From Escherichia coli (GTDB taxonomy: Bacteria; Pseudomonadota; Gammaproteobacteria; Enterobacterales; Enterobacteriaceae), in assembly GCF_013122565.1 (NCBI RefSeq), contig NZ_CP053258.1: 64,000 nucleotides of DNA; one strand, given 5' to 3'. Shown in pieces: positions 7,275-49,620 of the stretch. Below the pieces are notes generated by a model, which worked only from the letters and a program-made list of their open reading frames with translations, was not told the origin of the DNA and searched no databases. Made by a program: the position numbers and the translations under genes. How positions within the stretch are numbered: position 1 is the stretch's first letter; the number at the start of each line of letters is the position of its first letter.

Positions 7275-7319
7275 GTGCAGTTTGGGGCGGTTAAGGAATA
7301 AAAAATAAAGGACTAAGCC

Positions 7320-8729
7320 ATGCGTAATGATGAATTTTTTCACCATTTTACTTTGACACTGTTTATGTTGGGTGGCTATCTACTGACTCTGTTCATCGTT
7401 ATCGTCCTTTCCTTTTTTAGCCCATTATGCCGAAAAATGGTCTTCCATGGCGCATTGCCGCAATTGATGATGGCAATAACGGTGTCGCTCGGTTTATATT
7501 ATCTGGAACGATACTCTTTTGCGGTATGGGCCTTACTGGATTCTTTTTGGATATTATTCCCCTGCCTGTTATTGATCATAGTGATAAATAAATGGTTAAA
7601 GCGTTCCCTTGTATGGATGAGTGCTTGTCATATTATGTGCTTGCTGTTGTTACTCTGGCAGGTGCAGCCCACGTTATTTAAAATCAGCTTTTATCACCAA
7701 CAATTAAGTCACCTGGCTCAGGCAGAGCAGGAAAATTTCCGCACACTGGATGCGATTCACGATACGCAACGTCTGGAAGCGATGTTACTGGTAGCGTTGA
7801 AATCCCCGGAAAATCAAACCTCTGAAAATGCCTTTCGCTATCTGTCAGGGCGAATCTCACCATTTGCTATACCTTCCATTGGCGATGAACAGTATTCTAC
7901 CCGCACTTTTTTTACGATTGCGTTGGAACATTACAACGCCCGCGCCATCCGCGCGTTTAGCCGCTTTCTGCAAGGAAATTCCTCAAAAGCGCAGGAATAT
8001 CGTGCGATTGTTCATCAAAAAAATCCACTGCAGCAGATGTACCGGGGAATAAGTTTGCCAATTCGTTTTAGTGAAGAAGAGATCGCCCGTCACATTATTG
8101 CCGCTCGCGAGATAAGCCTCACCTTACTGCCCCTGATGCCAGAATTATTAAACGAAGAGGCGTATGCAAATGTCATTGATGCTTATGACAGCGCAACGCT
8201 GAAGGCTTTTTGGCAGTTCCAGCTGCCGCCTACGCCGGTTTTGCGCCTGGAAGCGATGTCGGTAATTCCCATGACAGCGGCACTGGTTCAACAGGTGAGA
8301 GAGTCACCAAAACGGCTTGAACTGGAAGATAAAAGTGGCAGGACAGTACTAACTTACATCGTGCGCTTTGGAAATATTGCCGCAGTACAGGCACTGATTG
8401 ACGCTAATCTGATCGACTGGCAACGGCTTCGCCAATCGACAGAAAGGTCAACACCATTATTACTGGCGACCTGGCGACAAAAATACGACGATGATCATGT
8501 AATCTTCCCATTGATTTTAAAGGACATGCTGGCAAAAAATGCGCCACCCTCAGCAGAGGAAATAATGAACTGCCTTAAGGATGGTATGACCGCAGATGAT
8601 TTTTTCTCTGCCGGAATGAGCAACACGCAATTCTGTTCTGCGATTGAACAAAGCCTCCAGGCGAAAACGTCAGTATTACCGGCGAATCGATTACGCCATC
8701 TGCAATCCTCGCTGTGTGCAAAGCTGTAA
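7320..8729 (+). CDS. Hypothetical membrane protein, paralogue of 5850..7274 (paralogue B)
   Basis: 469 aa; AAGGA RBS; shares motifs with upstream ORF (FSRFLQGNSSKAQ vs FSQLLMGNSSKAK; MPELLNEEAYANVIDAYD vs MPELLTDAVWRAVLNVYD). Confidence 0.6.
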   Translation: MRNDEFFHHFTLTLFMLGGYLLTLFIVIVLSFFSPLCRKMVFHGALPQLMMAITVSLGLYYLERYSFAVWALLDSFWILFPCLLLIIVINKWLKRSLVWMSACHIMCLLLLLWQVQPTLFKISFYHQQLSHLAQAEQENFRTLDAIHDTQRLEAMLLVALKSPENQTSENAFRYLSGRISPFAIPSIGDEQYSTRTFFTIALEHYNARAIRAFSRFLQGNSSKAQEYRAIVHQKNPLQQMYRGISLPIRFSEEEIARHIIAAREISLTLLPLMPELLNEEAYANVIDAYDSATLKAFWQFQLPPTPVLRLEAMSVIPMTAALVQQVRESPKRLELEDKSGRTVLTYIVRFGNIAAVQALIDANLIDWQRLRQSTERSTPLLLATWRQKYDDDHVIFPLILKDMLAKNAPPSAEEIMNCLKDGMTADDFFSAGMSNTQFCSAIEQSLQAKTSVLPANRLRHLQSSLCAKL

Positions 8730-8844
8730 CCAACCGGAAGTTAAGTCATCCGCTGAAAACATCGCATTAACTTTTCGATTTCTCTTTCGTTCCGGCTTAT
8801 AATCCCCGGCCTTTGATTATTTTTTTATCATTTCTGGAAGCAAA

Positions 8845-11064
8845 ATGAGCTCTATCTCCCTGATCCAACCGGATCGCGACCTGTTCTCCTGGCCGCAGTA
8901 CTGGGCCGCCTGTTTTGGACCGGCACCGTTTTTGCCGATGTCTCGTGAAGAGATGGATCAACTTGGCTGGGATAGCTGCGACATCATTTTGGTTACTGGC
9001 GACGCGTATGTCGATCACCCAAGCTTCGGGATGGCGATTTGCGGTCGTATGCTGGAAGCGCAGGGCTTTCGCGTCGGGATCATCGCCCAGCCGGACTGGA
9101 GCAGCAAAGACGACTTTATGCGTCTGGGTAAACCGAATCTGTTTTTCGGCGTTACTGCTGGCAACATGGATTCGATGATCAACCGCTATACCGCCGATCG
9201 CCGTTTACGTCATGACGATGCCTACACGCCGGATAACGTCGCGGGTAAGCGACCGGATCGCGCCACACTGGTTTATACCCAGCGTTGTAAAGAGGCGTGG
9301 AAAGATGTGCCGGTGATCCTCGGCGGTATTGAGGCTAGTCTGCGCCGTACCGCGCATTATGATTACTGGTCCGATACCGTGCGCCGTTCCGTGCTGGTGG
9401 ATTCCAAAGCCGACATGCTGATGTTCGGTAACGGTGAGCGTCCGTTGGTGGAGGTGGCGCACCGTCTGGCGATGGGCGAGCCGATTAGTGAAATCCGCGA
9501 TGTGCGTAATACTGCGATTATCGTAAAAGAGGCGTTGCCAGGCTGGAGCGGTGTGGATTCCACCCGTCTCGATACCCCAGGGAAAATCGACCCGATCCCG
9601 CATCCGTATGGCGAAGATCTGCCGTGCGCGGATAACAAACCTGTTGCGCCGAAAAAGCAGGAAGCGAAAGCCGTAACCGTGCAGCCGCCGCGCCCGAAAC
9701 CGTGGGAAAAAACCTACGTATTGCTGCCTTCTTTCGAGAAAGTGAAGGGCGATAAAGTGCTGTACGCCCATGCTTCGCGCATTCTGCACCACGAAACCAA
9801 CCCTGGCTGCGCCCGCGCATTGATGCAAAAACACGGCGACCGCTATGTGTGGATCAACCCGCCTGCTATCCCGCTTTCTACCGAAGAGATGGACAGCGTT
9901 TTTGCGCTGCCGTACAAGCGCGTGCCGCATCCGGCCTATGGCAATGCCCGTATTCCGGCTTACGAAATGATCCGTTTCTCGGTCAACATTATGCGCGGCT
10001 GCTTTGGCGGCTGCTCTTTCTGTTCTATCACTGAGCACGAAGGGCGCATTATTCAGAGCCGTTCGGAAGATTCGATCATTAATGAGATTGAAGCGATCCG
10101 CGACACCGTTCCAGGTTTTACGGGCGTAATTTCCGATCTCGGTGGGCCAACTGCCAACATGTATATGTTGCGCTGCAAATCGCCACGCGCTGAGCAAACC
10201 TGCCGCCGTTTGTCCTGCGTTTACCCGGATATTTGTCCGCATATGGACACGAACCACGAACCAACGATCAACCTCTATCGCCGTGCGCGTGATCTGAAAG
10301 GCATTAAAAAGATCCTGATTGCCTCTGGTGTGCGTTATGACATCGCCGTAGAAGATCCGCGCTATATCAAAGAACTGGCGACCCATCACGTCGGCGGTTA
10401 TCTGAAGATTGCCCCGGAACATACCGAAGAAGGGCCGTTATCGAAGATGATGAAGCCGGGCATGGGCAGCTATGACCGCTTTAAAGAGCTGTTCGATACC
10501 TACTCGAAACAGGCAGGTAAAGAGCAGTATCTGATCCCCTATTTCATCTCCGCGCACCCGGGTACGCGTGATGAAGATATGGTGAATCTGGCGCTGTGGC
10601 TGAAAAAGCATCGTTTCCGTCTCGACCAGGTACAGAACTTCTACCCATCGCCGCTGGCTAACTCGACCACCATGTATTACACCGGGAAAAACCCGCTGGC
10701 GAAGATTGGTTATAAGAGTGAAGACGTCTTCGTACCGAAGGGCGACAAGCAGCGTCGTTTGCATAAAGCGTTGTTGCGTTACCACGATCCGGCAAACTGG
10801 CCGTTAATCCGCCAGGCGCTGGAAGCGATGGGCAAAAAGCATCTGATTGGCAGCCGTCGCGATTGCTTAGTGCCTGCGCCAACCATTGAAGAGATGCGTG
10901 AAGCTCGTCGCCAGAACCGCAATACCCGTCCGGCGTTGACGAAACATACGCCGATGGCGACCCAGCGTCAGACGCCTGCTACGGCAAAAAAAGCGTCGTC
11001 TACGCAATCTCGTCCGGTGAATGCTGGTGCGAAGAAACGCCCTAAAGCGGCGGTTGGACGTTAA
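8845..11064 (+). CDS. ygiQ: Radical SAM superfamily protein YgiQ
   Basis: 739 aa; CxxxCxxC-type motif ([13 protein letters not shown]); position next to ftsP. Confidence 0.9.
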
Positions 11065-36695: not shown

Positions 36696-36730
36696 AAATG
36701 CCCGGTCCTGGCGATCGGGCATTTCCATTT
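36696..36730. terminator. Bidirectional terminator hairpin between pitB and yghT
   Basis: aaatgcccg ... cgggcattt inverted repeat followed by ccattttt. Confidence 0.5.
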
Positions 36731-36734
36731 TTGA

Positions 36735-37427
36735 CTAGTGATAACCACGCGCGGTCATAAAATCCGTAATCGCTTTTTCTGCATCAACCAGCACCTGTTC
36801 CAGTGGCTGATTGGCATCGATATCAACCAGTTGTGCACCACCAAAGGTTAACTGTGGCGTTATGGCAATCTTCCTCGCCAGCGATTCCCGTTTATGGTCG
36901 GGTTTACGCGCGCAGGCAACTTCAAGGTCAACATTGAGTTTGATGACCAGATCAGGCTTATGGCTCGCCATCCAGTGAAACGCTTTACGTTCCTGGCTTG
37001 CCAGCCATGAGACAAAACGACTACCTTCAACGTTAGGTGGGAACACCGTACCATCGTAAGCGCCAGGAATTTGGTCCTGAGGATAACGGTCGGTTAGAAC
37101 AATTAACCCGCGACGACGACAGGCAAGCATATGACGAAAGCGCAGTAAGCGACGGGCGACAAACGCTGTAATTACCAGCGCCGGAACTGGTCCTGGCAAT
37201 TTTTTTGCTGTTTTCACCTGATTTCGTTCAATTGTTTTATGTAAGGATTTTCCCATTAACGGTAATTTTGTCACTGCACGACCGACATTTCCGGCCTGTT
37301 TTCCTAAATGAACTCTTTCGGCAGCACCATATTTTTCGACAACGGTAATGAGATGTTCACACACCGTTGACTTGCCTGAACCATCGCTACCAATAACGGC
37401 AATTAATGGAGGTGTTATTGACTGCAT
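36735..37427 (-). CDS. yghT: P-loop NTPase (nucleoside/nucleotide-kinase-like fold) YghT
   Basis: 230 aa; Walker [10 protein letters not shown]. Confidence 0.85.
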
Positions 37428-37600
37428 GAATATATCCTTTAATTTAAATATTCATCCAAAATATTTATTTGGTTAATATGTTTTGATGAAAGCGTAAATC
37501 AGGTCAATGTCATAATTAACCATTGTCACAATAAGGTTGAACGGATATTCTGAGCACGGACCACGTAATATTCAATACATTATTTACTGCCGGGTTTTTC

Positions 37601-38314
37601 GTGAATCAACGTAATATGTCAATAATTAATTCCACGCCAGTGCGTGTTATTGCCATTGTAGGATGTGATGGTTCAGGTAAATCGACCCTCACGGCAAGCC
37701 TGGTAAATGAACTGGCAGCAAGAATGCCAACAGAACGCATTTATCTCGGGCAATCGTCCGGGCGAATTGGCGAATGGATTTCACAGCTCCCTGTTATTGG
37801 CGCACCTTTTGGGCGTTATCTGCGAAGTAAAGCGGCACATGTGCACGAAAAGCCCTCAACACCGCCTGGCAATATTACTGCGCTGGTTATCTATCTGCTT
37901 TCCTGCTGGCGGGCGTACAAGTTTCGCAAAATGTTGTGTAGAAGCCAGCAAGGCCATCTGCTCATCACCGACCGCTACCCGCAGGTTGAAGTGCCGGGTT
38001 TTCGCTTTGATGGCCCGCAATTGGCAAAAACCACGGGCGGTAACGGTTGGATAAAAATGTTAAGGCAGCGCGAGCTGAAGCTGTACCAATGGATGGCGTC
38101 TTATTTGCCCGTATTGTTGATTCGTCTTGGCATTGATGAACAAACCGCGTTTGCGCGTAAACCTGACCACCAACTGGCAGCGTTACAGGAAAAAATCGCC
38201 GTTACGCCGCAACTGACGTTCAACGGTGCCAGGATCCTTGAACTGGATGGTCGGCAACCAGCCGATGAAATTCTGCAAGCGTCACTACGCGCAATTCACG
38301 CCGCGCTTTCCTGA
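37601..38314 (+). CDS. yghS: P-loop NTPase YghS (paralogue of YghT/YghR)
   Basis: 237 aa; Walker A GCDGSGKST; shared ITDRYPQ motif. Confidence 0.85.
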   Translation: MNQRNMSIINSTPVRVIAIVGCDGSGKSTLTASLVNELAARMPTERIYLGQSSGRIGEWISQLPVIGAPFGRYLRSKAAHVHEKPSTPPGNITALVIYLLSCWRAYKFRKMLCRSQQGHLLITDRYPQVEVPGFRFDGPQLAKTTGGNGWIKMLRQRELKLYQWMASYLPVLLIRLGIDEQTAFARKPDHQLAALQEKIAVTPQLTFNGARILELDGRQPADEILQASLRAIHAALS

Positions 38315-38345
38315 TCACCAAAATGGATAGGGGATGATTTAACGA

Positions 38346-39104
38346 ATGGATGCACTACAAACACAAACTGTTAATAGTACAACCGCGCCGCAGCCCAACT
38401 ACATTCCGGGGCTGATTGCGGTGGTCGGGTGTGATGGCACCGGTAAATCCACACTGACCACTGACCTGGTGAAATCGCTGCAACAACACTGGCAAACTGA
38501 GCGGCGCTATCTGGGGCTGCTCTCGGGCGAAGACGGCGACAAAATCAAACGATTGCCGTTGGTTGGTGTCTGGCTCGAACGGCGACTGGCGGCCAAATCC
38601 TCGAAAACCCAAAGCATGAAAACCAAATCTCCAGCGCTATGGGCGGCGGTGATTATGTACTGCTTTTCGCTGCGAAGAATGGCGAATCTACGCAAGGTTC
38701 AGCGACTGGCGCAAAGTGGCGTTCTGGTGGTCAGCGATCGCTTCCCGCAGGCTGAAATTTCGGGCTTTTATTATGACGGACCGGGGATCGGCGTCGAACG
38801 TGCGACCGGGAAAATCAGCATGTTTCTGGCGCAGCGCGAACGGCGTTTATACCAAAAAATGGCGCAATACCGTCCTGAATTAATCATTCGTTTGGGGATT
38901 GATATTGATACTGCCATCTCCCGCAAGCCTGACCATGACTATGCCGAGCTGCAGGACAAAATCGGCGTCATGTCGACGATTGGCTATAACGGCACAAAAA
39001 TTCTTGAGATTGATTCCAGAGCGCCCTACAGCGAAGTGCTGGAACAGGCACAGAAGGCGGTTTCTCTGGTTGCCATCGTTTCTGACCGCCGAAGTTTAAC
39101 TTAA
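38346..39104 (+). CDS. yghR: P-loop NTPase YghR (paralogue of YghS/YghT)
   Basis: 252 aa; Walker A GCDGTGKST; VSDRFPQ motif. Confidence 0.85.
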   Translation: MDALQTQTVNSTTAPQPNYIPGLIAVVGCDGTGKSTLTTDLVKSLQQHWQTERRYLGLLSGEDGDKIKRLPLVGVWLERRLAAKSSKTQSMKTKSPALWAAVIMYCFSLRRMANLRKVQRLAQSGVLVVSDRFPQAEISGFYYDGPGIGVERATGKISMFLAQRERRLYQKMAQYRPELIIRLGIDIDTAISRKPDHDYAELQDKIGVMSTIGYNGTKILEIDSRAPYSEVLEQAQKAVSLVAIVSDRRSLT

Positions 39105-39149: not shown

Positions 39150-40499
39150 TTGGCGGGTTTTAACATCAAACATTGGTTTGCAGATGGCGCGTTTCGCACC
39201 ATTATTCGCAATAGCGCCTGGTTAGGCTCCAGTAATGTCGTGAGCGCCTTGCTGGGTCTGTTGGCGCTCTCGTGTGCCGGTAAAGGGATGACGCCCGCCA
39301 TGTTTGGCGTACTGGTGATTGTGCAATCGTACGCCAAGTCGATCAGCGATTTTATTAAGTTTCAGACATGGCAACTGGTGGTTCAGTACGGAACACCAGC
39401 ATTAACCAACAATAATCCGCAGCAATTCCGCAATGTCGTCTCATTTTCCTTCTCGCTGGATATCGTCAGCGGCGCGGTGGCGATTGTCGGCGGCATTGCC
39501 TTACTGCCATTCCTTTCCCATTCATTAGGTCTGGATGACCAAAGTTTTTGGCTGGCAGCGCTCTATTGCACGCTCATTCCTTCAATGGCTTCCTCCACGC
39601 CGACCGGCATTCTGCGTGCGGTAGATCGCTTCGATCTAATTGCTGTACAGCAAGCGACGAAACCTTTTCTGCGCGCAGCGGGGAGCGTCGTAGCCTGGTA
39701 TTTTGACTTTGGTTTTGCGGGTTTTGTTATCGCCTGGTACGCATCGAATCTGGTTGGCGGCACCATGTACTGGTGGTTTGCCGCGCGCGAATTACGTCGC
39801 AGAAATATCCATAACGCCTTCAAATTGAATCTGTTTGAGTCTGCCCGACACATTAAAGGCGCGTGGAGTTTTGTCTGGTCAACCAACATTGCCCACTCCA
39901 TCTGGTCGGCGCGTAACTCGTGCAGCACAGTGCTGGTGGGGATCGTGTTAGGACCCGCTGCCGCCGGGTTATTTAAAATCGCCATGACATTCTTCGATGC
40001 CGCCGGAACGCCAGCGGGTTTGCTGGGTAAAAGTTTTTACCCAGAGGTGATGCGTTTAGATCCGCGCACCACCAGACCGTGGTTGTTAGGTGTGAAGTCC
40101 GGTTTACTGGCGGGCGGAATTGGTATTCTGGTGGCACTCGCGGTGTTGATCGTCGGCAAGCCGCTCATTTCACTGGTGTTTGGTGTGAAGTATCTCGAAG
40201 CGTATGACCTGATTCAGGTGATGCTGGGCGCAATTGTGATTTCGATGCTGGGCTTCCCGCAGGAGTCATTGCTATTGATGGCGGGAAAACAGCGCGCTTT
40301 TCTCGTGGCGCAAACCATCGCCTCAATCGGCTACATCGTATTGCTGTTCATGTTCTGTCATCTGTTTGGCGTGCTGGGAGCAGCGTTTGCTTACTTCGGT
40401 GGGCAATGTCTGGATGTGGTGCTCTCGCTAATTCCAACCTTAAAGGCATTTTTTCAGCGCCATTCCTTGCTTTATAACGCAGCCGGAGAGAAATCCTGA
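39150..40499 (+). CDS. yghQ: Polytopic inner membrane protein, MOP/Wzx-like flippase superfamily (YghQ); start uncertain
   Basis: Long hydrophobic ORF; the track start at 39150 is TTG; first in-frame ATG near 39288; stop overlaps the start of the next gene. Confidence 0.7.
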   Translation: MAGFNIKHWFADGAFRTIIRNSAWLGSSNVVSALLGLLALSCAGKGMTPAMFGVLVIVQSYAKSISDFIKFQTWQLVVQYGTPALTNNNPQQFRNVVSFSFSLDIVSGAVAIVGGIALLPFLSHSLGLDDQSFWLAALYCTLIPSMASSTPTGILRAVDRFDLIAVQQATKPFLRAAGSVVAWYFDFGFAGFVIAWYASNLVGGTMYWWFAARELRRRNIHNAFKLNLFESARHIKGAWSFVWSTNIAHSIWSARNSCSTVLVGIVLGPAAAGLFKIAMTFFDAAGTPAGLLGKSFYPEVMRLDPRTTRPWLLGVKSGLLAGGIGILVALAVLIVGKPLISLVFGVKYLEAYDLIQVMLGAIVISMLGFPQESLLLMAGKQRAFLVAQTIASIGYIVLLFMFCHLFGVLGAAFAYFGGQCLDVVLSLIPTLKAFFQRHSLLYNAAGEKS

Positions 40500-41323
40500 T
40501 GATGAGAAAATATTTCCCGCTTGAGGCGAGCGAGCGTCTATTTGTTGCGATTGAAGAAGATGATGTCGTTGATGCACAGGTCAGTTTGCCGCCGACTATC
40601 GCACTAAGTTGTACCACCGAAATCATCCATGATAATTACGCGTTATGCCTGCAATTCTGGCTCAATGGCGTCAATCGCCAGGAGTTACTGCGTTTAATAT
40701 GCAAACAGGCCAAAGGCGATGAGCTGACTGCTGATGAGCGCAAACAATTTAAATACATGCGAGCGCGCTACAAGCACCTGCGTTTTGCGCAACGGCTGTA
40801 TTTAAAAAAGCATCAGGCCGGATTTTTATTCGGCAAAACGACCGTTTTTCTGGGACGTTTTCAGGACGGATTTCGTAACGGTAAGAAAAATATTGTGTCG
40901 TATTACGGCAACCTGTTACGAATTTATTTAAGCTCTCCGGTCTGGTCGTTGGTGAACTATTCATTACGCCATAGCCAGTTAGAAAGCGTAAGCGGTTTTA
41001 TTGCCTATCGGCAACAGCAAATGCATACCCTGAAAGAGATTATTGCCAAACCGCGACTAACCGGCAGGGAATTTCATGATGTGCGAAAAATCATCAGCCA
41101 GCAGGTTTCTTATTACGACACCTTAAGATCGCTTGATCCTGAAAATAAAGAGGCGTTACAGATTTCCCGCTTCCTCGCCGCCATTAATGGCCTGATGGGG
41201 GATAAACACGACGACATGGTGGCGGATGATATGGAAAACCGCCAGTCGTATGATGCACCGGTGGCGCTGGATAGCGATATTCGTCAGCGCTTAGAGCTGC
41301 TGATTTCGCGTTTTCCGCTATAA
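40499..41323 (+). CDS. Hypothetical protein (no recognisable domain), translationally coupled to yghQ
   Basis: 274 aa; ATG overlaps the yghQ TGA (ATGA-type junction). Confidence 0.55.
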   Translation: MMRKYFPLEASERLFVAIEEDDVVDAQVSLPPTIALSCTTEIIHDNYALCLQFWLNGVNRQELLRLICKQAKGDELTADERKQFKYMRARYKHLRFAQRLYLKKHQAGFLFGKTTVFLGRFQDGFRNGKKNIVSYYGNLLRIYLSSPVWSLVNYSLRHSQLESVSGFIAYRQQQMHTLKEIIAKPRLTGREFHDVRKIISQQVSYYDTLRSLDPENKEALQISRFLAAINGLMGDKHDDMVADDMENRQSYDAPVALDSDIRQRLELLISRFPL

Positions 41324-41331
41324 CCGGAGCA

Positions 41332-41895
41332 ATGATGTCATCTCGTTTGATTATTGCGCTGATTATCATGCTCTTAGCCCCGGGTGTGCAGGCACACAAT
41401 TTCGTCACTGGCAAAACGGTTACCCCCGTTTATATCCAGGAAGGCGGCGAGCTGCTTCTGAATAGCGACGACGAAATTCACTACCAAAAGTGGAACAGCA
41501 CACAATTGGCGGGAAAAGTTCGCATTATTCAGTATATCGCCGGGCGTAAGTCGGCGAAGAAAAAGAACTCACTGTTAATTAAAGCGGTTGAAGCGGCAAA
41601 CTTTCCGCAGGATCGTTTTCAGCCCACAACCATCGTGAACACCGATGATGCCATCTTTGGTACCGGCTATTTTGTCGTTGGCAAAATCGAAAAAAATAAA
41701 CGCCGCTATCCGTGGGCGCAATTCGTTATTGACGGCAATGGACTGGGACGCATTGCCTGGCGCTTGCCGGAGCAGAGTTCAACCATTCTGGTGCTGAATA
41801 AAGCCGGGCAAATTCAGTGGGCAAAGGACGGCAGCCTGACGCCGGAAGAGGTAGATCATGTCATTGCGTTGGCGCAGAAACTGATCAATGAATAA
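41332..41895 (+). CDS. Periplasmic protein, YtfJ-like family (tentative)
   Basis: 187 aa; signal peptide LIIALIIMLLAPGVQA; size and composition resemble the YtfJ family. Confidence 0.5.
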   Translation: MMSSRLIIALIIMLLAPGVQAHNFVTGKTVTPVYIQEGGELLLNSDDEIHYQKWNSTQLAGKVRIIQYIAGRKSAKKKNSLLIKAVEAANFPQDRFQPTTIVNTDDAIFGTGYFVVGKIEKNKRRYPWAQFVIDGNGLGRIAWRLPEQSSTILVLNKAGQIQWAKDGSLTPEEVDHVIALAQKLINE

Positions 41896-41925: not shown

Positions 41926-42996
41926 ATGAAGCTGGTTGAACACTACATCATGCGTGGTACGCGCCGTTTGGTGCTGATTATCGTCGGTTTTCTGATCTTT
42001 ATTTTCGCCAGCTACTCCGCACAGCGTTATCTGACCGAAGCGGCAAATGGGACATTAGCACTTGATGTTGTGCTGGATATCGTTTTTTACAAGGTGCTGA
42101 TTGCACTGGAGATGTTGTTACCTGTTGGACTGTATGTGTCAGTTGGCGTGACGCTAGGGCAGATGTATACCGACTCGGAAATCACAGCTATCTCTGCGGC
42201 GGGGGGCAGTCCGGGACGCTTGTACAAAGCCGTTCTTTATCTGGCGATACCGCTAAGTATTTTTGTCACCCTTCTGTCGATGTATGGTCGTCCGTGGGCT
42301 TATGCGCAGATTTATCAACTGGAGCAGCAGTCGCAGTCGGAGCTGGATGTTCGCCAGTTGCGGGCAAAGAAATTTAACACTAACGATAACGGACGAATGA
42401 TCCTTTCGCAGACGGTTGATCAGGATAATAATCGCCTGACTGACGCGCTGATTTATACTTCTACTGCCAATCGAACCCGCATTTTCCGCGCCCGTTCGGT
42501 TGATGTGGTTGACCCATCTCCCGAGAAACCGACCGTTATGTTGCACAACGGCACCGCCTATCTTCTCGATCATCAGGGGCGTGACGACAACGAACAGATC
42601 TACCGTAATCTGCAATTACATCTGAATCCGCTGGATCAAAGCCCTAATGTCAAACGCAAAGCGAAATCGGTCACGGAGCTGGCGCGCTCCGTCTTTCCAG
42701 CCGATCATGCCGAACTGCAATGGCGACAAAGCCGTGGCCTGACCGCATTGTTGATGGCGCTGCTGGCCATTTCATTAAGTCGGGTAAAACCGCGGCAGGG
42801 GCGATTTTCAACGTTATTGCCACTGACGTTGCTGTTTATTGCCATTTTTTATGGCGGCGACGTCTGCCGTACGCTGGTGGCTAACGGCGCGATTCCTCTC
42901 ATTCCTGGTTTGTGGTTAGTACCCGGACTCATGCTAATGGGCCTGCTGATGCTGGTTGCACGCGACTTCACTTTGCTGCAGAAATTTTCCCGATGA
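41926..42996 (+). CDS. LptF/LptG-family (YjgP/YjgQ) permease, LptF-like
   Basis: 356 aa; LGQMYTDSEIT and KPRQGRFSTLLP resemble LptF LGKLYTESEIT / NPRQGRVLSMLP; TM-periplasmic domain-TM architecture. Confidence 0.7.
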   Translation: MKLVEHYIMRGTRRLVLIIVGFLIFIFASYSAQRYLTEAANGTLALDVVLDIVFYKVLIALEMLLPVGLYVSVGVTLGQMYTDSEITAISAAGGSPGRLYKAVLYLAIPLSIFVTLLSMYGRPWAYAQIYQLEQQSQSELDVRQLRAKKFNTNDNGRMILSQTVDQDNNRLTDALIYTSTANRTRIFRARSVDVVDPSPEKPTVMLHNGTAYLLDHQGRDDNEQIYRNLQLHLNPLDQSPNVKRKAKSVTELARSVFPADHAELQWRQSRGLTALLMALLAISLSRVKPRQGRFSTLLPLTLLFIAIFYGGDVCRTLVANGAIPLIPGLWLVPGLMLMGLLMLVARDFTLLQKFSR

Positions 42997-44072
42997 ATGT
43001 TTTCAGTCGCTATTTAATCCGTCATCTCTTTCTCGGTTTTGCCGCCGCCGCAGGGCTATTGCTGCCGCTTTTTACCACCTTCAACCTGATTAACGAACTG
43101 GATGATGTCAGCCCGGGCGGTTATCGCTGGACTCAGGCGGTGCTGGTGGTGCTGATGACCTTACCGCGTACACTGGTCGAACTTTCGCCGTTTATCGCAT
43201 TATTGGGAGGGATTGTTGGCCTGGGGCAGTTATCGAAAAACAGTGAGCTTACCGCCATTCGCAGCACTGGGTTTTCTATCTTCCGTATTGCACTGGTGGC
43301 GCTGGTTGCCGGGATATTGTGGACTGTTTCGTTAGGCGCGATAGATGAGTGGGTGGCGTCGCCGTTGCAGCAACAGGCGCTGCAAATCAAATCGACCGCC
43401 ACCGCGTTGGGGGAGGACGATGACATTACCGGCAATATGCTGTGGGCCAGGCGCGGCAATGAATTTGTGACGGTGAAATCGCTGAACGAGCAGGGCCAGC
43501 CGGTGGGCGTGGAGATATTTCATTATCGCGACGATCTCTCGCTCGAATCCTACATTTATGCACGCAGTGCCACCATTAAAGACGACAAAATGTGGAGCCT
43601 GCATGGTGTGAATCATAAAAAATGGCTTAACGGTAAAGAAACGCTGGAAACATCAGATAATCTTGCCTGGCAATCGGCCTTCACCAGTATGGATCTTGAA
43701 GAGCTATCGATGCCGGGGAATACTTTTTCTGTCCGTCAGCTTAATCATTACATCCATTATTTGCAGGAAACCGGGCAACCCAGCAGCGAATACCGCCTTG
43801 CACTGTGGGAAAAACTGGGGCAACCCATCCTGACCCTGGCGATGATTTTGCTGGCTGTGCCGTTTACCTTTAGCGCCCCGCGCTCGCCAGGGATGGGTAG
43901 CCGTCTCGCTGTAGGCGTCATCGTTGGCTTACTCACCTGGATCAGCTATCAAATCATGGTCAATCTGGGGTTGCTATTTGCGTTGAGCGCACCTGTTACC
44001 GCGCTCGGTTTACCGGTAGCGTTTGTACTGGTGGCGTTGAGCCTGGTGTATTGGTATGACAGACAACATTAA
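42993..44072 (+). CDS. LptF/LptG-family permease, LptG-like
   Basis: 359 aa from ATG overlapping the upstream stop; NHYIHYLQETGQ...RSPGMGSRL resembles LptG NYVKYLKSSGQ...RSVPMGVRV. Confidence 0.7.
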   Translation: MNVFSRYLIRHLFLGFAAAAGLLLPLFTTFNLINELDDVSPGGYRWTQAVLVVLMTLPRTLVELSPFIALLGGIVGLGQLSKNSELTAIRSTGFSIFRIALVALVAGILWTVSLGAIDEWVASPLQQQALQIKSTATALGEDDDITGNMLWARRGNEFVTVKSLNEQGQPVGVEIFHYRDDLSLESYIYARSATIKDDKMWSLHGVNHKKWLNGKETLETSDNLAWQSAFTSMDLEELSMPGNTFSVRQLNHYIHYLQETGQPSSEYRLALWEKLGQPILTLAMILLAVPFTFSAPRSPGMGSRLAVGVIVGLLTWISYQIMVNLGLLFALSAPVTALGLPVAFVLVALSLVYWYDRQH

Positions 44073-44106: not shown

Positions 44107-45195
44107 TTACTGCTTCAGAGTAGCAAATGCCTGAATGATGGTATCGATTTGCTCACGACTGTGGGCAGCGTTTACGCTACAGCGCAGCAGCGTGATGCCT
44201 GCAGGCGCGGCAGGTGGCAGGATAAGATTCACATAAACGCCCAGCGAAATAAGCTCGCGCCAGATGCGTAAACCTTCCTCTTTCGAACCGATTATTACCG
44301 GCACTACCGGACTAATATGTGAACTTAACTCATAACCCAGTTTTTGCAGACCGTCATACAGATGGTTGGCGTTATCCATCAGTTTTTGCCGCAGCTCTGG
44401 TTGTGTGGCAATGGTTCTTAACGACGAGCGCACGGTCGCAATGCAGGACGGAGAAGGAGAGGCGGTAAAAATATACGGGCGGCTGCCGTAGCGCAGCACT
44501 TCCATCGCTTCCGAACCGACAGCAAAACCGCCAATCGAGGCCAGACTTTTACTGAAGGTACCAACGATAATATCCACATCATCTTCAACGCCAACGGCTT
44601 CAGCCAGTCCGCGCCCCGTTGCGCCTAACACGCCAAACGAATGCGCTTCATCGACAATCAAATAACCACCGAGACGACGTTTGATATCAACAATTTCCGC
44701 TAACGGCGCAACGTCACCGAGCATGCTGTAGATACCCTCAACGATGATAATCGCCTCTTTCGCCCGTTCACCGAGGCGAACCATGCGCCGTTCCAGATCT
44801 TTAGCATCGTTATGGCGGAAACGAATAATTTCCGCGCCACCGAGAGAACAGGCGTCATAAATACTGGCGTGGCTGTCGGCATCCAGTAACACCACGGCGT
44901 TATGGTCGGCAAGTGCGCTGATGACGCCTAAATTAGCGGTATAACCGGTTGAAAAAACGATAGCGGTAGGGCGATTGAAAAACTCGGCAATCTCTTTCTC
45001 TAACGCCAGGTGCGGCGCATAACTGCCGTTTGCCATACGAGAACCGGTGGTGCCGGTGCCTTGGGCCGCTAACGCTGCCTGACCTTCGGTGGCGGAATAC
45101 ACTTCATCAATACAGGTGCCAAACGGTGTTAACCCGTTGTCACTAAATTGCAGTCGCTCGCCAGCAAGGCGCGCATATTTATCGTATAGCCCCAT
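44107..45195 (-). CDS. PLP-dependent alpha-oxoamine synthase (BioF/Kbl/serine palmitoyltransferase family)
   Basis: 362 aa; DEAHSFGVLGATGRG and GTFSKSLASIGGF (PLP-lysine motif). Confidence 0.75.
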   Translation of the reverse strand: MGLYDKYARLAGERLQFSDNGLTPFGTCIDEVYSATEGQAALAAQGTGTTGSRMANGSYAPHLALEKEIAEFFNRPTAIVFSTGYTANLGVISALADHNAVVLLDADSHASIYDACSLGGAEIIRFRHNDAKDLERRMVRLGERAKEAIIIVEGIYSMLGDVAPLAEIVDIKRRLGGYLIVDEAHSFGVLGATGRGLAEAVGVEDDVDIIVGTFSKSLASIGGFAVGSEAMEVLRYGSRPYIFTASPSPSCIATVRSSLRTIATQPELRQKLMDNANHLYDGLQKLGYELSSHISPVVPVIIGSKEEGLRIWRELISLGVYVNLILPPAAPAGITLLRCSVNAAHSREQIDTIIQAFATLKQ

Positions 45196-45443
45196 TATTT
45201 ATTCTCCAGCCATGGAAGTAGAGTTTCCATTAATTGCGCAGGGGTTTTGACATCCAGCAGAATATTAATAGGAATGGAAATATCGAATCTGTCTTCCAGC
45301 ATCATTAAGAGATCCATCACTTTGATCGACTCCAGGCCAAGATCGTTGACGAGATCGCTGTCGGGCTTAATTTCCACACCGTTTTCGACCAAATCCTGTA
45401 AACAGGAAAGGATGTAATCCATTACTATTTCACGATTTACCAT
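45195..45443 (-). CDS. Acyl carrier protein
   Basis: 82 aa; phosphopantetheine attachment-like motif DLGLESIK; stop overlaps the downstream start. Confidence 0.7.
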   Translation of the reverse strand: MVNREIVMDYILSCLQDLVENGVEIKPDSDLVNDLGLESIKVMDLLMMLEDRFDISIPINILLDVKTPAQLMETLLPWLENK

Positions 45444-45474: not shown

Positions 45475-46389
45475 TCAAAATAGCCCGTTGCGTAATGCGT
45501 GTTCCAGGCTAATCCCGGGAAACCAATTAATATCTTCAGAAATACGGTTATTATTTGCCGACCAGTCGGCGTGGGTTAATTCACGAATTTTCGAGCGGGT
45601 CAGCATAGGTTCTTTACCTGCCAGGCGACTCAACGCAGTACTGATATCCGCAAGGCAGGTGAGTACCGGCAGAGGAATGCCAACCATCCGCACAGAACCA
45701 CAACGGGCTTCGGCGGCAAGCTGTCGTACGCGTTGCCAGTCATAGCCGCCAGCGACGCCATCGCATAATTCATAGGTTTGCGTCTGTACAGTTTCGGCGC
45801 TTAACCACTGACCCACGGCTTGCGCGAAATCGGTGACGTGCAGGAAAGAGAGCTGTGTATCTGGCGCACCAAGTCGTGGCAGCAGGCCGCGCAGCATCCA
45901 GTCAAACAGCGGTTTTAACTCTTTATCGCCTGGACCATACACGGCTGTCGGGCGAAAAACGCCCAGCGTAATTTCATCAGCCATTGCAGTCAGCCGTTGT
46001 TCGGCGACGTGTTTGGAATTTGCGTACCAGGAGAGTTCGGGATGGCGCGCCGCCAGCGAAGAGATAAACAGAAAACGTTGGCAAAAGCCGCTCTCTTTTG
46101 CCGCTTGCATCAGGCGCAGGCTGCCGTCAACGTTACAGTGGGTAAAAATCTCTTCTTTGTGTCCGCGCACTTGCCCGGCGCAATGGACCACCGCGCTGGC
46201 TCCGGCAACCAGTTCGCTAAGTGAATGAGTATCTTCCAGCGAACCGCGCACCCAGGTGAGATTGTCATTGACGTGAGCGCGGGCAGTACGCGTCAATGCG
46301 CGAACGTGAAAGCCGCGGGCGAGCAGGTTATCGATAATATATTTACCGATAAACCCGGTAGCGCCCGTCACCGCGACAGTTTGATTCAT
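45475..46389 (-). CDS. NAD(P)-dependent epimerase/dehydratase-family reductase
   Basis: ~304 aa from Met MNQTVAVTGATGFIGKYI (Rossmann GxTGxxG); ATG overlaps the stop of the upstream ligase gene; the ORF track extends to 46599. Confidence 0.7.
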   Translation of the reverse strand: MNQTVAVTGATGFIGKYIIDNLLARGFHVRALTRTARAHVNDNLTWVRGSLEDTHSLSELVAGASAVVHCAGQVRGHKEEIFTHCNVDGSLRLMQAAKESGFCQRFLFISSLAARHPELSWYANSKHVAEQRLTAMADEITLGVFRPTAVYGPGDKELKPLFDWMLRGLLPRLGAPDTQLSFLHVTDFAQAVGQWLSAETVQTQTYELCDGVAGGYDWQRVRQLAAEARCGSVRMVGIPLPVLTCLADISTALSRLAGKEPMLTRSKIRELTHADWSANNNRISEDINWFPGISLEHALRNGLF

Positions 46390-48107
46390 GCCAGGGATTC
46401 CTGCACATGAAGACTGGCAGCATAAGCCTTCTGATAACGTTTTTTCGCTTCCGCACGGGCAGGCTTGCCGGAGGACGTTCGGGGAATACTGTGGGGCGGC
46501 AACAGATCGATAGCCGCGGTCACGCCAAATTCGCTTTGGATCCGTGCCGCCAGCGCGTGGATAAGCTGCCCGCGACGTTCTTCGTCGCTGATCCGACACT
46601 GGATCTGCAAAATGATTTTTTCCTGGGCGGTAACAAAAGCAATCGCATCGCCAGAATGAATTTCCGGTTCCTGTTCCGCAATATATTCAATATCCTGCGG
46701 CCAGATATTACGGCCACGAATAATAATCAGATCTTTAATGCGTCCGGTGACATACAGATAACCGTCCAGCAGATAACCGAGGTCGCCGGTGTCTAACCAG
46801 CCCGTCGCGGCAATCTCGTCTTGCGAAGCCTGGTCGCCAAAGTAACCGCTCATCAGGCTAGGGCCGGAGATGCAAATATGGCCTACCACACGTTCCGCGA
46901 CAGGTATACCTGCTTCATTGCGGATTTCAATGCCATGTTCCGGCAACGCTTTGCCGCAGTTGACGAAAGTCGATACGGCGCGTGTCTCTGCACCCGGCGC
47001 GACGGCTTTACCCTGATATTCGAGGATGTCGCGATCCACTTCGTTAACCACAACCCCGGAGGCTTCATCAGAGAAGCTGACAGCCAGCGCATTTTCTGCC
47101 AGTCCGTAGCACGGCATGAAAGTTTTATTGTCAAAGTTAACCTGACGGAAACATTCAGCGAATTGATGGAGTTGTTCTGCGGAGATGGGTTCTGCACCAA
47201 TACCAGCGACGCGCCAGGAGGAAAGATCCAGTTCAGCGAGATCTTTTTCATTCACGCGGCGCTGGCACAATTCATAGCCAAACGGCGGCGCAACGGAAAC
47301 GGTGCCGCGATTTTTACTGATCAATTTAAGCCATTGCAGAGGACGCATGGCAAAATCCTGAGTGCGCAAATAATCTACTGAAAGCTGCGTGGCGACAGGG
47401 GTCAGGAGAAAGCCGACCAGTCCCATATCATGGTAGAAAGGCAGCCAGGAGACGCAGCGGTCGCCAGGGCGTAATTTAATGCCATCGTGGCTTATAGCAC
47501 GTAGATTAGCCATCACTTCGCGATGGGTGATAATGACGCCACGGGGAAAACGGGTGCTGCCGGAGGTGTACTGGAGGTAGGCGATATCGTTCGGAACTGG
47601 ACGCTGGAGCGCAACATCGGCTTCCGGTAATGCCTTAAACCAGGCGTGGCTTAAAACATGTAATTCGGGATTGTTATGCGTCGCGGCATTGACCAGTGGC
47701 AACCACTCATCACCAGTGATAATGGCTGCGGGCTGGCAACTTGCCAGTAAACCCTGCAGTTTGGCGCTCCAGGAATCCCGCTGACCGACGCCCATTGGAA
47801 TCGCCAACGGGACGGCGACTAAGCCGGCATACTGGCAGGCAAAAAAAGCCTCTACGAACCCGCTACTGGTTTCGGCAATCAGCGCCACGCGATCGCCTTT
47901 TTTCAGGTTCAGCGATAACAACCGCTTCGCACCAGCTTCGGCACGCGCTTTTAACGTCTGATATTCCAGTTGATCTTCAAGTTGGCAACGTCTGTCATAA
48001 AAATTCATTCCAGCGCTACTCAGAGCGGCGTAGTCCAAAGCATCAACCAGCGTTGGAAAATCGGCATAGCGCATAGGTAGGGAATGCGTAAAGATTTTAT
48101 TAGACAT
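46386..48107 (-). CDS. Fatty acyl-AMP ligase / acyl-ACP synthetase (adenylate-forming superfamily)
   Basis: ~573 aa from Met MSNKIFTHSL; AMP-binding motifs YTSGSTRFPRGV, GYGLAE; C-terminal SSGKPAR. Confidence 0.75.
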   Translation of the reverse strand: MSNKIFTHSLPMRYADFPTLVDALDYAALSSAGMNFYDRRCQLEDQLEYQTLKARAEAGAKRLLSLNLKKGDRVALIAETSSGFVEAFFACQYAGLVAVPLAIPMGVGQRDSWSAKLQGLLASCQPAAIITGDEWLPLVNAATHNNPELHVLSHAWFKALPEADVALQRPVPNDIAYLQYTSGSTRFPRGVIITHREVMANLRAISHDGIKLRPGDRCVSWLPFYHDMGLVGFLLTPVATQLSVDYLRTQDFAMRPLQWLKLISKNRGTVSVAPPFGYELCQRRVNEKDLAELDLSSWRVAGIGAEPISAEQLHQFAECFRQVNFDNKTFMPCYGLAENALAVSFSDEASGVVVNEVDRDILEYQGKAVAPGAETRAVSTFVNCGKALPEHGIEIRNEAGIPVAERVVGHICISGPSLMSGYFGDQASQDEIAATGWLDTGDLGYLLDGYLYVTGRIKDLIIIRGRNIWPQDIEYIAEQEPEIHSGDAIAFVTAQEKIILQIQCRISDEERRGQLIHALAARIQSEFGVTAAIDLLPPHSIPRTSSGKPARAEAKKRYQKAYAASLHVQESLA

Positions 48108-48477
48108 ATACACCACGAAAAAATTGGATATCAAAAATAAAATGACAATAATGCGGTGGATTATATAGGCATAAAAGATAAATGAGATAGTATTTTCATC
48201 AGTGTGAAAATGAACATTGATTTAAATAATAGGTTTGGTTTTGTTGTTTTTATTGTGAATGATATTTAATTTATGAATATATTAAGAAGAAGCCTTGTCC
48301 GGTCGCCTTAAATCGACAAAAGGCATTGTGGCGCTTCTGTGTAGTCTCTGACCTTATCTTAATCATTAATAAATACTATTTATTCTTTATTTGTATTCAT
48401 TGGGTTGATTATTAAGATGCCGTTCGTTGCTGTTGTAACCTGTTTGTCACCGTTAATTATTTGTTATCCACAGAGAT
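48108..48477. promoter_or_regulatory. AT-rich divergent intergenic control region between the ligase operon and yghO
   Basis: 370 bp of strongly AT-rich sequence with A/T tracts between divergent gene starts. Confidence 0.5.
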
Positions 48478-49620
48478 ATGGAATGCGATCTGCTGATGAT
48501 TAAAATTGAAAAAGTAATTAATAAAAATGACCTTAAGGCATTTATCGCTTTTCCGTCATCACTTTATCCCGACGATCCAAACTGGATACCCCCTTTATTC
48601 ATTGAACGCAACGAGCATTTGTCTGCGAAAAATCCGGGGACGGACCATATCATCTGGCAGGCGTGGGTGGCAAAAAAAGCGGGGCAGATAGTTGGGCGTA
48701 TTACCGCGCAAATAGATACCTTGCACCGCGAGCGTTACGGCAAAGATACCGGTCATTTCGGCATGATTGACGCCATTGATGATCCGCAGGTTTTTGCCGC
48801 GTTGTTTGGCGCAGCGGAAGCGTGGTTGAAGTCACAAGGTGCAAGTAAGATCAGCGGTCCTTTCAGCCTGAATATCAATCAGGAAAGCGGATTACTGATT
48901 GAAGGTTTCGATACACCACCCTGTGCGATGATGCCGCACGGTAAACCGTGGTATGCCGCGCATATTGAACAATTGGGTTATCACAAAGGCATTGATTTAC
49001 TGGCGTGGTGGATGCAGCGAACCGATCTCACTTTCTCTCCGGCGCTAAAAAAACTGATGGATCAGGTGCGCAAAAAGGTGACCATTCGCTGCATCAATCG
49101 CCAGCGGTTTGCCGAAGAGATGCAGATCCTGCGTGAGATTTTCAACTCTGGCTGGCAGCACAACTGGGGATTTGTGCCGTTTACCGAACATGAATTCGCG
49201 ACCATGGGCGACCAACTTAAATATCTGGTGCCGGACGATATGATCTACATCGCTGAGATTGATTCTGCACCCTGCGCGTTTATTGTCGGCTTGCCGAACA
49301 TCAACGAGGCGATTGCCGATCTGAACGGATCGCTCTTTCCCTTCGGCTGGGCAAAATTGCTGTGGCGTTTGAAAGTCAGCGGTGTGCGAACTGCGCGAGT
49401 ACCGCTGATGGGCGTGCGCGACGAGTATCAGTTCAGCCGCATCGGCCCGGTAATTGCGCTGTTATTGATTGAAGCCTTACGCGATCCGTTTGCCCGCCGG
49501 AAGATCGATGCGCTGGAGATGTCATGGATCCTCGAAACCAATACAGGCATGAATAACATGCTGGAACGCATTGGGGCGGAGCCGTACAAGCGTTACCGAT
49601 TGTATGAAAAGCAGATTTAA
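48478..49620 (+). CDS. yghO: YghO, acyl-CoA N-acyltransferase-like protein (intact)
   Basis: 380 aa uninterrupted ORF; position next to glcC; alternative start at MIKIEK (48496). Confidence 0.7.
   Translation: MECDLLMIKIEKVINKNDLKAFIAFPSSLYPDDPNWIPPLFIERNEHLSAKNPGTDHIIWQAWVAKKAGQIVGRITAQIDTLHRERYGKDTGHFGMIDAIDDPQVFAALFGAAEAWLKSQGASKISGPFSLNINQESGLLIEGFDTPPCAMMPHGKPWYAAHIEQLGYHKGIDLLAWWMQRTDLTFSPALKKLMDQVRKKVTIRCINRQRFAEEMQILREIFNSGWQHNWGFVPFTEHEFATMGDQLKYLVPDDMIYIAEIDSAPCAFIVGLPNINEAIADLNGSLFPFGWAKLLWRLKVSGVRTARVPLMGVRDEYQFSRIGPVIALLLIEALRDPFARRKIDALEMSWILETNTGMNNMLERIGAEPYKRYRLYEKQI

Follow-up and report, generated by a model that had tools for sequence, protein, structure and literature searches.

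Two described systems are among the closest to the genes treated here, yghT, yghS and yghR of Escherichia coli, which we studied in a window of 64,000 nucleotides (the whole stretch of DNA analysed; assembly GCF_013122565.1, contig NZ_CP053258.1). The first is PPK3 of Sulfolobus acidocaldarius, a phosphoanhydride-forming polyphosphate kinase made up of two paralogs of thymidylate kinase (dTMPK, hereafter TMK), Saci_2019 (cPPK3) and Saci_2020 (rPPK3), neither of which has dTMPK activity; the regulatory subunit rPPK3 has lost the Arg of the DRX motif, the operon includes a CHAD (conserved histidine alpha-helical, polyphosphate-binding) protein, and most organisms with PPK3 lack both PPK1 and PPK2 (PMC12995831). 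The second is the sphingolipid locus of Caulobacter, which encodes the ceramide kinase CpgB (LCB5/diacylglycerol-kinase fold, GGDG motif) together with the LptF and LptG paralogs LptF2 and LptG2, which are required for sphingolipid export and bind LptB (bioRxiv 10.64898/2026.04.12.717747). In many bacteria the E. coli genes have counterparts next to genes for sphingolipid synthesis and export and for a protein with a phosphate-chain-binding fold, and this linkage suggests that YghT, YghS and YghR phosphorylate a sphingolipid or its head group. We assign a probability of roughly 45% to the reading that they are the phosphorylation module of a proteobacterial sphingolipid locus, recruited from nucleotide metabolism, which would add phosphate to the head group or extend phosphate already there. 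What we computed are the fold and catalytic motifs of the proteins, their basic character, the linkage of the genes, the fusions between paralogs and a partner protein's CHAD fold. The three genes are:

36735..37427, minus strand: yghT, 230 aa, TMK-superfamily P-loop kinase paralog, divergent from yghS
37601..38314, plus strand: yghS, 237 aa, GTG start, TMK-superfamily P-loop kinase paralog
38346..39104, plus strand: yghR, 252 aa, TMK-superfamily P-loop kinase paralog

These are exactly the three open reading frames of the interval 36735-39104, and the gene order in this part of the Escherichia chromosome is gss, pitB, yghT, yghS, yghR, yghQ ... glcC-glcDEFGBA. Of 5426 complete E. coli genomes, 4784 contain the yghTSR DNA, with 95-99% DNA identity. 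YghT, YghS and YghR are true paralogs with similarity well above chance (BLASTP: YghS against YghR, 44% identity, E 9e-63; YghT against YghR, 33% identity, E 4e-46). The first-pass annotation, made from the letters of the window, had described three paralogous P-loop NTPases of 230-252 aa with a shared Walker A motif, yghT being divergent from yghS-yghR, and the reading frames, their strands and the alignments agree with it (GCDGTGKST is among the Walker A sequences). Its second motif, [IV][TS]DR[YF]PQ, fits YghS (ITDRYPQ) and YghR (VSDRFPQ) but not YghT, in which the first residue is Leu rather than Ile or Val (LTDRYPQ), and the trio does not flank the neighbouring lipid island, as had been stated, but lies with all three genes on one side of it. 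In K-12 the three are annotated as putative ATP-binding proteins; the RefSeq products are "dTMP kinase" for yghS and yghT, and "nucleoside/nucleotide kinase family protein" or "hypothetical protein" for yghR.

An AlphaFold model of YghR (alignment of 59 homologs, pLDDT 90.5) has thymidylate kinases as its best structural matches (Foldseek E ~3e-7), which supports the small nucleoside/nucleotide kinase fold proposed in the first pass; ST1543, a cPPK3 homolog, is also among the best matches, and deoxynucleoside, gluconate, shikimate and chloramphenicol kinases have the same fold in structure comparison. Profile alignments to solved TMKs show that the Ygh proteins share with Tmk (EC 2.7.4.9; PF02223/TIGR00041) the P-loop GxDGxGKST, the DR[YF] motif, the Arg/Lys lid and the Arg of 'SANR' (R111 in YghR), which we take to bind the acceptor phosphate, as in established TMK structures. 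Unlike Tmk, to which they are only 15-19% identical, they carry a ~40-residue insertion and a strongly basic acceptor side, and the dTMP-recognition segments REPGG and S..AYQ are replaced by YLGxxSGxxG and PQxExPGxxxDGP. Their net charge is +10 to +12, whereas that of E. coli Tmk is -6, and the acceptor-side segment 62-124 has a mean charge of +10.4 over 217 family members. All curated cut-offs are missed: against PF02223 (cut-off 27 bits) the three proteins score 21, 16.3 and 26 bits, and against TIGR00041 (cut-off 83 bits) 25.9, 22.1 and 31.1 bits, in an alignment that is weak and full-length. A canonical tmk is encoded elsewhere in the E. coli genome, whereas yghRST are non-essential and often left behind or lost with the adjoining locus. 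Judged by these features, the trio are phosphotransferases of the dTMPK superfamily whose acceptor differs from dTMP and is probably polyanionic or membrane-proximal, and the RefSeq name "dTMP kinase" is very likely wrong. Homology to the ceramide kinase CpgB was considered and rejected, CpgB having the LCB5/diacylglycerol-kinase fold and the Ygh proteins the P-loop TMK fold; a Pfam scan found no DAGK_cat match in them. An anti-phage defence system was likewise ruled out, the matches of the PADLOC defence models to the Ygh proteins being of P-loop length only (E 2e-4 or weaker).

For the analysis of conservation, 214 orthologs were taken from 80 genomes, giving an alignment of 217 sequences. 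Within each of the T, S and R lineages, G28, D30, G31, G33, K34, P134, Q135, D144, E165, R193, K194, D196, H197 and K205 are 99-100% conserved, and the DRX residues D131 and R132 97-100%; the catalytic columns are kept in 68 YghT and in 71 YghS orthologs, and YghT carries an RKPDH motif. All three proteins thus look catalytically competent, with no apparent pseudo-kinase among them. When 1.84 billion representative proteins were searched with the family profile, 2193 relatives were returned, and among the best 150 four are tandem kinase fusions (P0121 joins an S-like to an R-like kinase, P0122 and P0124 a T-like to an R/S-like one), while 63 others have an N-terminal extension that is weakly NTP_transf_5-like. 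Further architectures are an NTP_transf_5-like domain plus kinase of ~500 aa (the P0171 type), a MOP flippase plus NTP_transf_5-like domain plus YghRST-like kinase in a single chain of 978-1038 aa (P0222, P0265), and a family 4 glycosyltransferase (GT4) plus kinase of 669 aa (P0259). The natural tandem fusions indicate that the paralogs act as one unit, and together with the strictly shared active-site residues they point to either a hetero-oligomer or successive steps on one substrate; three adjoining, co-encoded paralogs with natural S+R and T+R/S fusions imply a complex, and the trio probably acts as a hetero-oligomer. The earlier suggestion of substrate-specific kinases, one substrate per paralog, finds no support here, since fusions and shared active-site residues point to one joint enzyme or substrate, and nothing was found in favour of its other suggestion, a regulatory ATPase set.

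The genes downstream of the trio provide its context. They are:

39150..40499, plus strand: yghQ, 449-aa MOP/Wzx-like flippase (Pfam Polysacc_synt, 1.1e-10)
40499..41323, plus strand: unannotated 274-aa protein, predicted CHAD fold; its start overlaps the yghQ stop
41332..41895, plus strand: YtfJ-family periplasmic protein, 187 aa (Pfam YtfJ_HI0045, 2.7e-59; TIGR01626 above cut-off)
41926..42996, plus strand: lptF2, LptF paralog, 356 aa (Pfam LptF_LptG, 7.9e-54)
42993..44072, plus strand: lptG2, LptG paralog, 359 aa from the ATG at 42993 (Pfam LptF_LptG, 8e-69; orthologs 359 aa)
44107..45195, minus strand: spt, serine palmitoyltransferase (NCBIfam NF047599, 535 bits, cut-off 500)
45195..45443, minus strand: acpR-like acyl carrier protein, 82 aa (orthologs with PF00550 PP-binding, annotated acyl carrier protein)
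45475..46389, minus strand: cerR-like NAD-dependent epimerase/reductase, 304 aa from an internal ATG (Pfam Epimerase, 2.6e-23; orthologs 304-305 aa)
46386..48134, minus strand: fatty acyl-AMP ligase (FAAL), aasR-like acyl-carrier-protein-loading enzyme, 582 aa (NCBIfam NF006624, 874 bits, cut-off 600)
48478..49620, plus strand: yghO-like protein, 380 aa, candidate ceramide synthase (conserved together with the spt operon in 31/80 loci)

The genes yghS, yghR, yghQ, the CHAD-like gene, the ytfJ-like gene, lptF2 and lptG2 are co-directional, the gaps between them measuring only -4 to 45 nt; the run from yghS to lptG2 thus looks like one operon, on which the spt, acpR-like, cerR-like and acyl-AMP ligase genes converge. 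Its gene content identifies the island as the sphingolipid locus predicted for E. coli. The name spt is already given in other E. coli by PGAP, the RefSeq annotation pipeline; E. coli is listed among the Spt-bearing gamma-proteobacteria by Padilla-Gomez et al. (PMC9386255), and "sphingolipid operons" of E. coli UTI89 with LptF2/LptG2 paralogs have been drawn beside those of Caulobacter (10.64898/2026.04.12.717747). The score of YghQ against the NCBIfam MOP flippase model (34.1 bits) is far under the curated cut-off of 273, and Pfam and NCBIfam scans found no family match for the yghO-like protein. The mechanical reading frame of the cerR-like gene (45475-46599, minus strand) starts 70 codons upstream of the likely start, an ATG giving MNQTVAVTGATG and 304 aa; the long frame produces an apparent ~210-nt overlap with the acyl-AMP ligase gene, the shorter start one of only 4 nt. 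In the spt of this window there is an in-frame 84-bp (28-aa) deletion, which leaves 362 aa compared with 390 aa in other Escherichia and takes out RIGNKKVILAGTNNYLGLTFNHDAITDG, including the NNYLGL segment conserved in alpha-oxoamine synthases. The two aligned pieces overlap by ~8-9 bp at the junction, which suggests microhomology. The enzyme is probably inactive, so this lineage may be losing the pathway although the locus is otherwise intact.

The CHAD fold of the 274-aa protein encoded after yghQ is predicted, having been detected by fold search only; a sequence search with the CHAD-like profile against the Protein Data Bank found nothing. We also considered whether this protein corresponds to the N-terminal domain in the ~500-aa kinase fusions and rejected the idea, BLASTP against P0171 and P0162 giving no match; that domain is weakly NTP_transf_5-like, and in one locus (L061) the CHAD-like gene is separate. 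Pfam and NCBIfam scans found no CpgB-type kinase, glycosyltransferase or CDP-alcohol transferase in the enterobacterial locus, and in the absence of such Caulobacter-type head-group enzymes the kinase trio and the CHAD-like protein are the sole head-group candidates.

To see how far the linkage extends, we scanned one genome per species, which gave 80 loci, and searched the neighbours within 10 kb by tblastn with the window proteins. Spt lies within this distance in 48 of the 80 loci, namely 32/35 in Enterobacterales and 16/45 elsewhere; among the three Enterobacterales without it are a 4.4-kb contig and loci cut short to ~0.5-2 kb on one flank. The non-enterobacterial loci with Spt belong to Dyella/Luteibacter, Carnimonas, Methylotenera, Sulfuritalea, Gallionellaceae and several metagenome-assembled genomes of gamma- and beta-proteobacteria. 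A YghQ-like flippase is present in 60/80 loci and the CHAD-like 274-aa gene in 49/80. In Serratia liquefaciens, Sodalis ligni and Erwinia sorbitola the kinases (yghT on the minus strand, then yghS and yghR) stand beside all sphingolipid genes with the blocks reordered, FAAL-cerR-acp-spt, yghO, yghQ, the CHAD-like gene, ytfJ and lptF2G2 all being kept. Sphingomonadales, which are classic sphingolipid producers with scattered pathway genes, and Acetobacter keep S-R-T-yghQ-CHAD (274 aa) together, and in Halioglobus T, S, R, a flippase and LptF2/G2-like genes are found together. Linkage conserved despite such rearrangements gives good support to a functional link between the kinases and the lipid locus. 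The neighbourhood of flippase, Lpt-like and lipid-synthesis genes noticed in the first pass is thus real and conserved across genera and classes, and with Spt so often close by, an absence of co-occurrence cannot be held against it.

Additional lipid-modifying genes occur in related loci. A DgkA-like kinase (PF01219) is encoded in 18 loci, a small PAP2 phosphatase (PF01569) in 19, many of them non-enterobacterial and usually with the gene directly downstream of yghT, and an LpxO-like protein of the Asp/Asn beta-hydroxylase family (PF05118) in 23, usually directly downstream of yghR (example positions: L002 1419-1781; L061 6653-7192 and 10726-11334); the corresponding place in the E. coli window holds none of the three. 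Within E. coli the kinases were found in 4784 complete genomes, as against 4186 for the spt operon and 4175 for the lptF2G2 segment. In K-12 MG1655 (L086, 3122000-3137000; features 7044-10409) there is an IS5 with a deletion between yghO and a truncated yghQ (1068 bp, compared with 1350 bp in the window), the genes from the CHAD-like one through the acyl-AMP ligase being gone, which makes yghQRST and yghO of that strain remnants of a sphingolipid locus. A separate decay is seen in E. coli MB53 (L001 24836-27737), where the YtfJ-family gene is cut by IS1A and followed directly by glcA, without lptF2/G2, the spt operon, yghO and glcC-glcB.

Set beside its Caulobacter counterpart (CpgB/CpgA/C/D with LptF2/G2), the enterobacterial locus shares spt, acpR, cerR, an acyl-ACP (acyl carrier protein) synthetase, a ceramide synthase candidate, a putative flippase and the LptF/LptG paralogs, and for both, Lpt-type export leads one to expect an anionic head group. 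They differ in that the Caulobacter locus encodes nucleotidyl- and CDP-alcohol transferases but neither a TMK-like nor a CHAD protein, whereas in the enterobacterial locus it is the other way round; the published Caulobacter gene list, which contains nucleotidyltransferases, a CDP-alcohol transferase and a phosphoesterase, has no P-loop kinase, so that a TMK-like gene there is ruled out. A functional analogy can also be drawn with the undecaprenyl pyrophosphate glycan cycle, in which a MOP flippase (Wzx/MurJ) is coupled to cytoplasmic synthesis of a lipid-linked phosphoanhydride; the PAP2 phosphatase in many related Ygh loci recalls the periplasmic PAP2 pyrophosphatases of that cycle. Unlike it, the E. 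coli locus has no polyprenyl-phosphate transferase or glycosyltransferase, and the expected lipid is ceramide, not undecaprenol.

On the reading we prefer, for which substrate, product and order of steps are those we infer, the trio would act together at the cytoplasmic face of the inner membrane and transfer phosphate from ATP to a ceramide-derived head group. The likeliest chemistry would be a TMK-type transfer onto an existing phosphate, for instance from ceramide-1-phosphate to a pyro- or oligophosphate, with the phosphate chain bound by the CHAD-fold partner. Flipping of the anionic lipid would fall to the Wzx-like YghQ, and its extraction in the direction of the outer membrane to LptF2/LptG2, for which LptB would probably supply the energy, as it does in Caulobacter; in other taxa a periplasmic PAP2 phosphatase could trim the exported lipid. 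TMK chemistry, the acceptor-phosphate Arg, the basic surface, the CHAD partner and the DgkA-like and PAP2 neighbours fit this one phosphorylation model, and so does the general rule that Wzx-type flippases normally handle lipid-pyrophosphate-linked substrates. The more specific proposal that YghTSR, the CHAD protein and YghQ make and export a sphingolipid with a phosphoanhydride-chain head group (ceramide pyro- or oligophosphate) is a tentative one that we think is probably not correct as it stands; in a variant of this idea, the module could tether inorganic polyphosphate to the envelope or feed it there.

Several observations weigh against a role of the trio in sphingolipid phosphorylation. 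About 600 E. coli genomes, K-12 included, have kept yghRST and lost the spt genes, and in the window itself spt carries the probably inactivating deletion while the kinases are intact; kinases kept without a working spt may have a ceramide-independent role. Outside the Enterobacterales only the 16 of 45 loci have Spt within 10 kb, and the Caulobacter sphingolipid locus does without a Ygh-type kinase, using an LCB5-type ceramide kinase. Distant relatives occur in polysaccharide-type clusters with glycosyl- and sulfotransferases, as in L005 (8457-12233), where a ~500-aa NTP_transf_5-like plus kinase protein is encoded with a flippase gene on one side and GT4 genes on the other, two sulfotransferase genes lying upstream; this suggests that the ancestral substrate may not be a sphingolipid and that the common denominator of the family may be the flippase. 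Searchable literature, E. coli sphingolipid studies included, yielded no discussion of yghR/S/T or phenotype assigned to them, in agreement with the earlier statement that their function is uncharacterised, nor did it yield a report of a ceramide pyro-, di- or oligophosphate. In a silkworm virulence screen the yghRST single knockouts scored 80-100, like most strains, and mlaA 0. The invariant D144, E165, D196 and H197 could, to judge from the alignment, equally serve a hydroxyl-kinase mechanism.

Among other explanations, the strongest is that the trio and the CHAD protein form a bacterial PPK3-like enzyme, that is, a soluble hetero-oligomeric polyphosphate kinase or a polyphosphate-dependent nucleotide kinase, connected with sphingolipids only via a shared programme such as phosphate economy or envelope stress. 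By analogy, archaeal PPK3 is the closest precedent for the trio plus CHAD protein, short of established membership: in both, dTMPK-fold paralogs with P-loop, DRX motif and lid lie side by side, were formerly annotated as thymidylate kinases and lack the dTMP-binding residues, the substrate side is basic, and the gene cluster encodes a CHAD-domain protein; the hetero-oligomer demonstrated for PPK3 is implied for the Ygh proteins by the fusions. We nevertheless regard a PPK3-like enzyme as unlikely. The Ygh paralogs are three, all seemingly intact catalytically, and an inactive regulatory subunit of the rPPK3 kind is absent, D131-R132 with the DRX Arg being kept in all three lineages. No Ppx, Ppk1 or SixA-type neighbour was found in 85 loci or in the window, where the neighbours are instead a Wzx-like flippase, LptF2/G2 and sphingolipid synthesis genes, and E. 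coli already has PPK1 (ppk) and PPX (ppx), whereas most PPK3 organisms have neither PPK1 nor PPK2. The Ygh profile is closer to canonical TMKs (1.9e-11) than to ST1543 (1e-5, P-loop only), and both the rearrangement-proof linkage to flippase and spt genes and the flippase-kinase fusions would be left unexplained.

Alternatively, the three proteins might be hydroxyl kinases, each for a different hydroxyl of the sphingolipid or a precursor (C1, C3 or acyl chain), in place of the LCB5-type CpgB; this corresponds to the substrate-specific kinases of the first pass. The trio are the only obvious head-group enzymes in the enterobacterial locus, the same-fold deoxynucleoside, gluconate, shikimate and chloramphenicol kinases all phosphorylate hydroxyls, any of the four invariant acidic or His residues just named could act as the base, and an LpxO-like acyl hydroxylase gene often follows yghR. 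This division of labour is nonetheless quite improbable: three different acceptor sites are hard to square with active-site motifs and invariant acceptor-side residues that are the same in all the lineages; phosphate-acceptor kinases (TMK) give the best matches, and the acceptor-phosphate Arg is retained; the DgkA-like lipid kinase of 18 loci could in principle make ceramide-1-phosphate; and the CHAD partner points to phosphate chains rather than monoesters.

That the proteins are additional thymidylate or nucleotide kinases, in keeping with their PGAP names, and unconnected to the lipid genes is very improbable: the RefSeq names, the TMK fold and the weak full-length TIGR00041 alignment speak for it, but all curated thresholds are missed widely, the dTMP-binding motifs are absent, a canonical tmk is present and the linkage to sphingolipid and flippase genes is conserved across classes, and Saci_2019/Saci_2020 show that such annotations of TMK paralogs can be wrong. 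The idea that the trio are missing ATPase subunits energising the LptF2/LptG2 permease or the flippase is close to refuted. In its favour, the locus has no gene for an LptB paralog, and yghS and yghR stand in one operon with lptF2-lptG2; but the proteins have the TMK fold and not that of an ABC nucleotide-binding domain (ABC_tran matches cover the P-loop only, E 0.006-0.03), Caulobacter LptF2/G2 bind the housekeeping LptB, and MOP flippases are not known to use ATPases.

If the link between the trio and sphingolipids is functional, phosphate-chain chemistry, with archaeal PPK3 as its nearest precedent, would be joined to outer-membrane lipid export. Such a product could amount to a new anionic lipid of the cell surface that matters for susceptibility to polymyxin and antiseptics and for recognition by the host, and the widespread RefSeq misannotation "dTMP kinase" would be corrected. 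The three genes were known as long-standing K-12 genes of unknown function and are still uncharacterised; they now have a concrete and testable context, and what is new is the assignment to a sphingolipid locus across three proteobacterial classes, the predicted CHAD-fold partner, the paralog fusions and the parallel to PPK3. While the K-12 trio appears to be a stranded remnant, the locus persists in about three quarters of the complete E. coli genomes and in many Enterobacterales.

The divergent genes are separated by a control region:

37428..37600, no strand: divergent yghT/yghS control region, AT-rich

The bin 37001-38000, with the yghT/yghS promoter region and gene starts, has 45% GC compared with ~52% in the flanks. 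SlyA overexpression induces yghS 3.1-fold (PMC5797941), and the yghS/yghT spacer holds an FlhDC peak from systematic evolution of ligands by exponential enrichment (SELEX; PMC9962212). The low GC fits the SlyA induction and suggests H-NS-type silencing of the locus, which would account for a lipid product that is unseen in standard cultures. A promoter scan gave one promoter-like site (37523-37551, plus strand), not above chance expectation, and a terminator scan was also at chance level. In the 48-nt gap between the convergent pitB and yghT lies a hairpin (36696-36724) with a 12-bp stem and T-runs, plausibly a bidirectional terminator.

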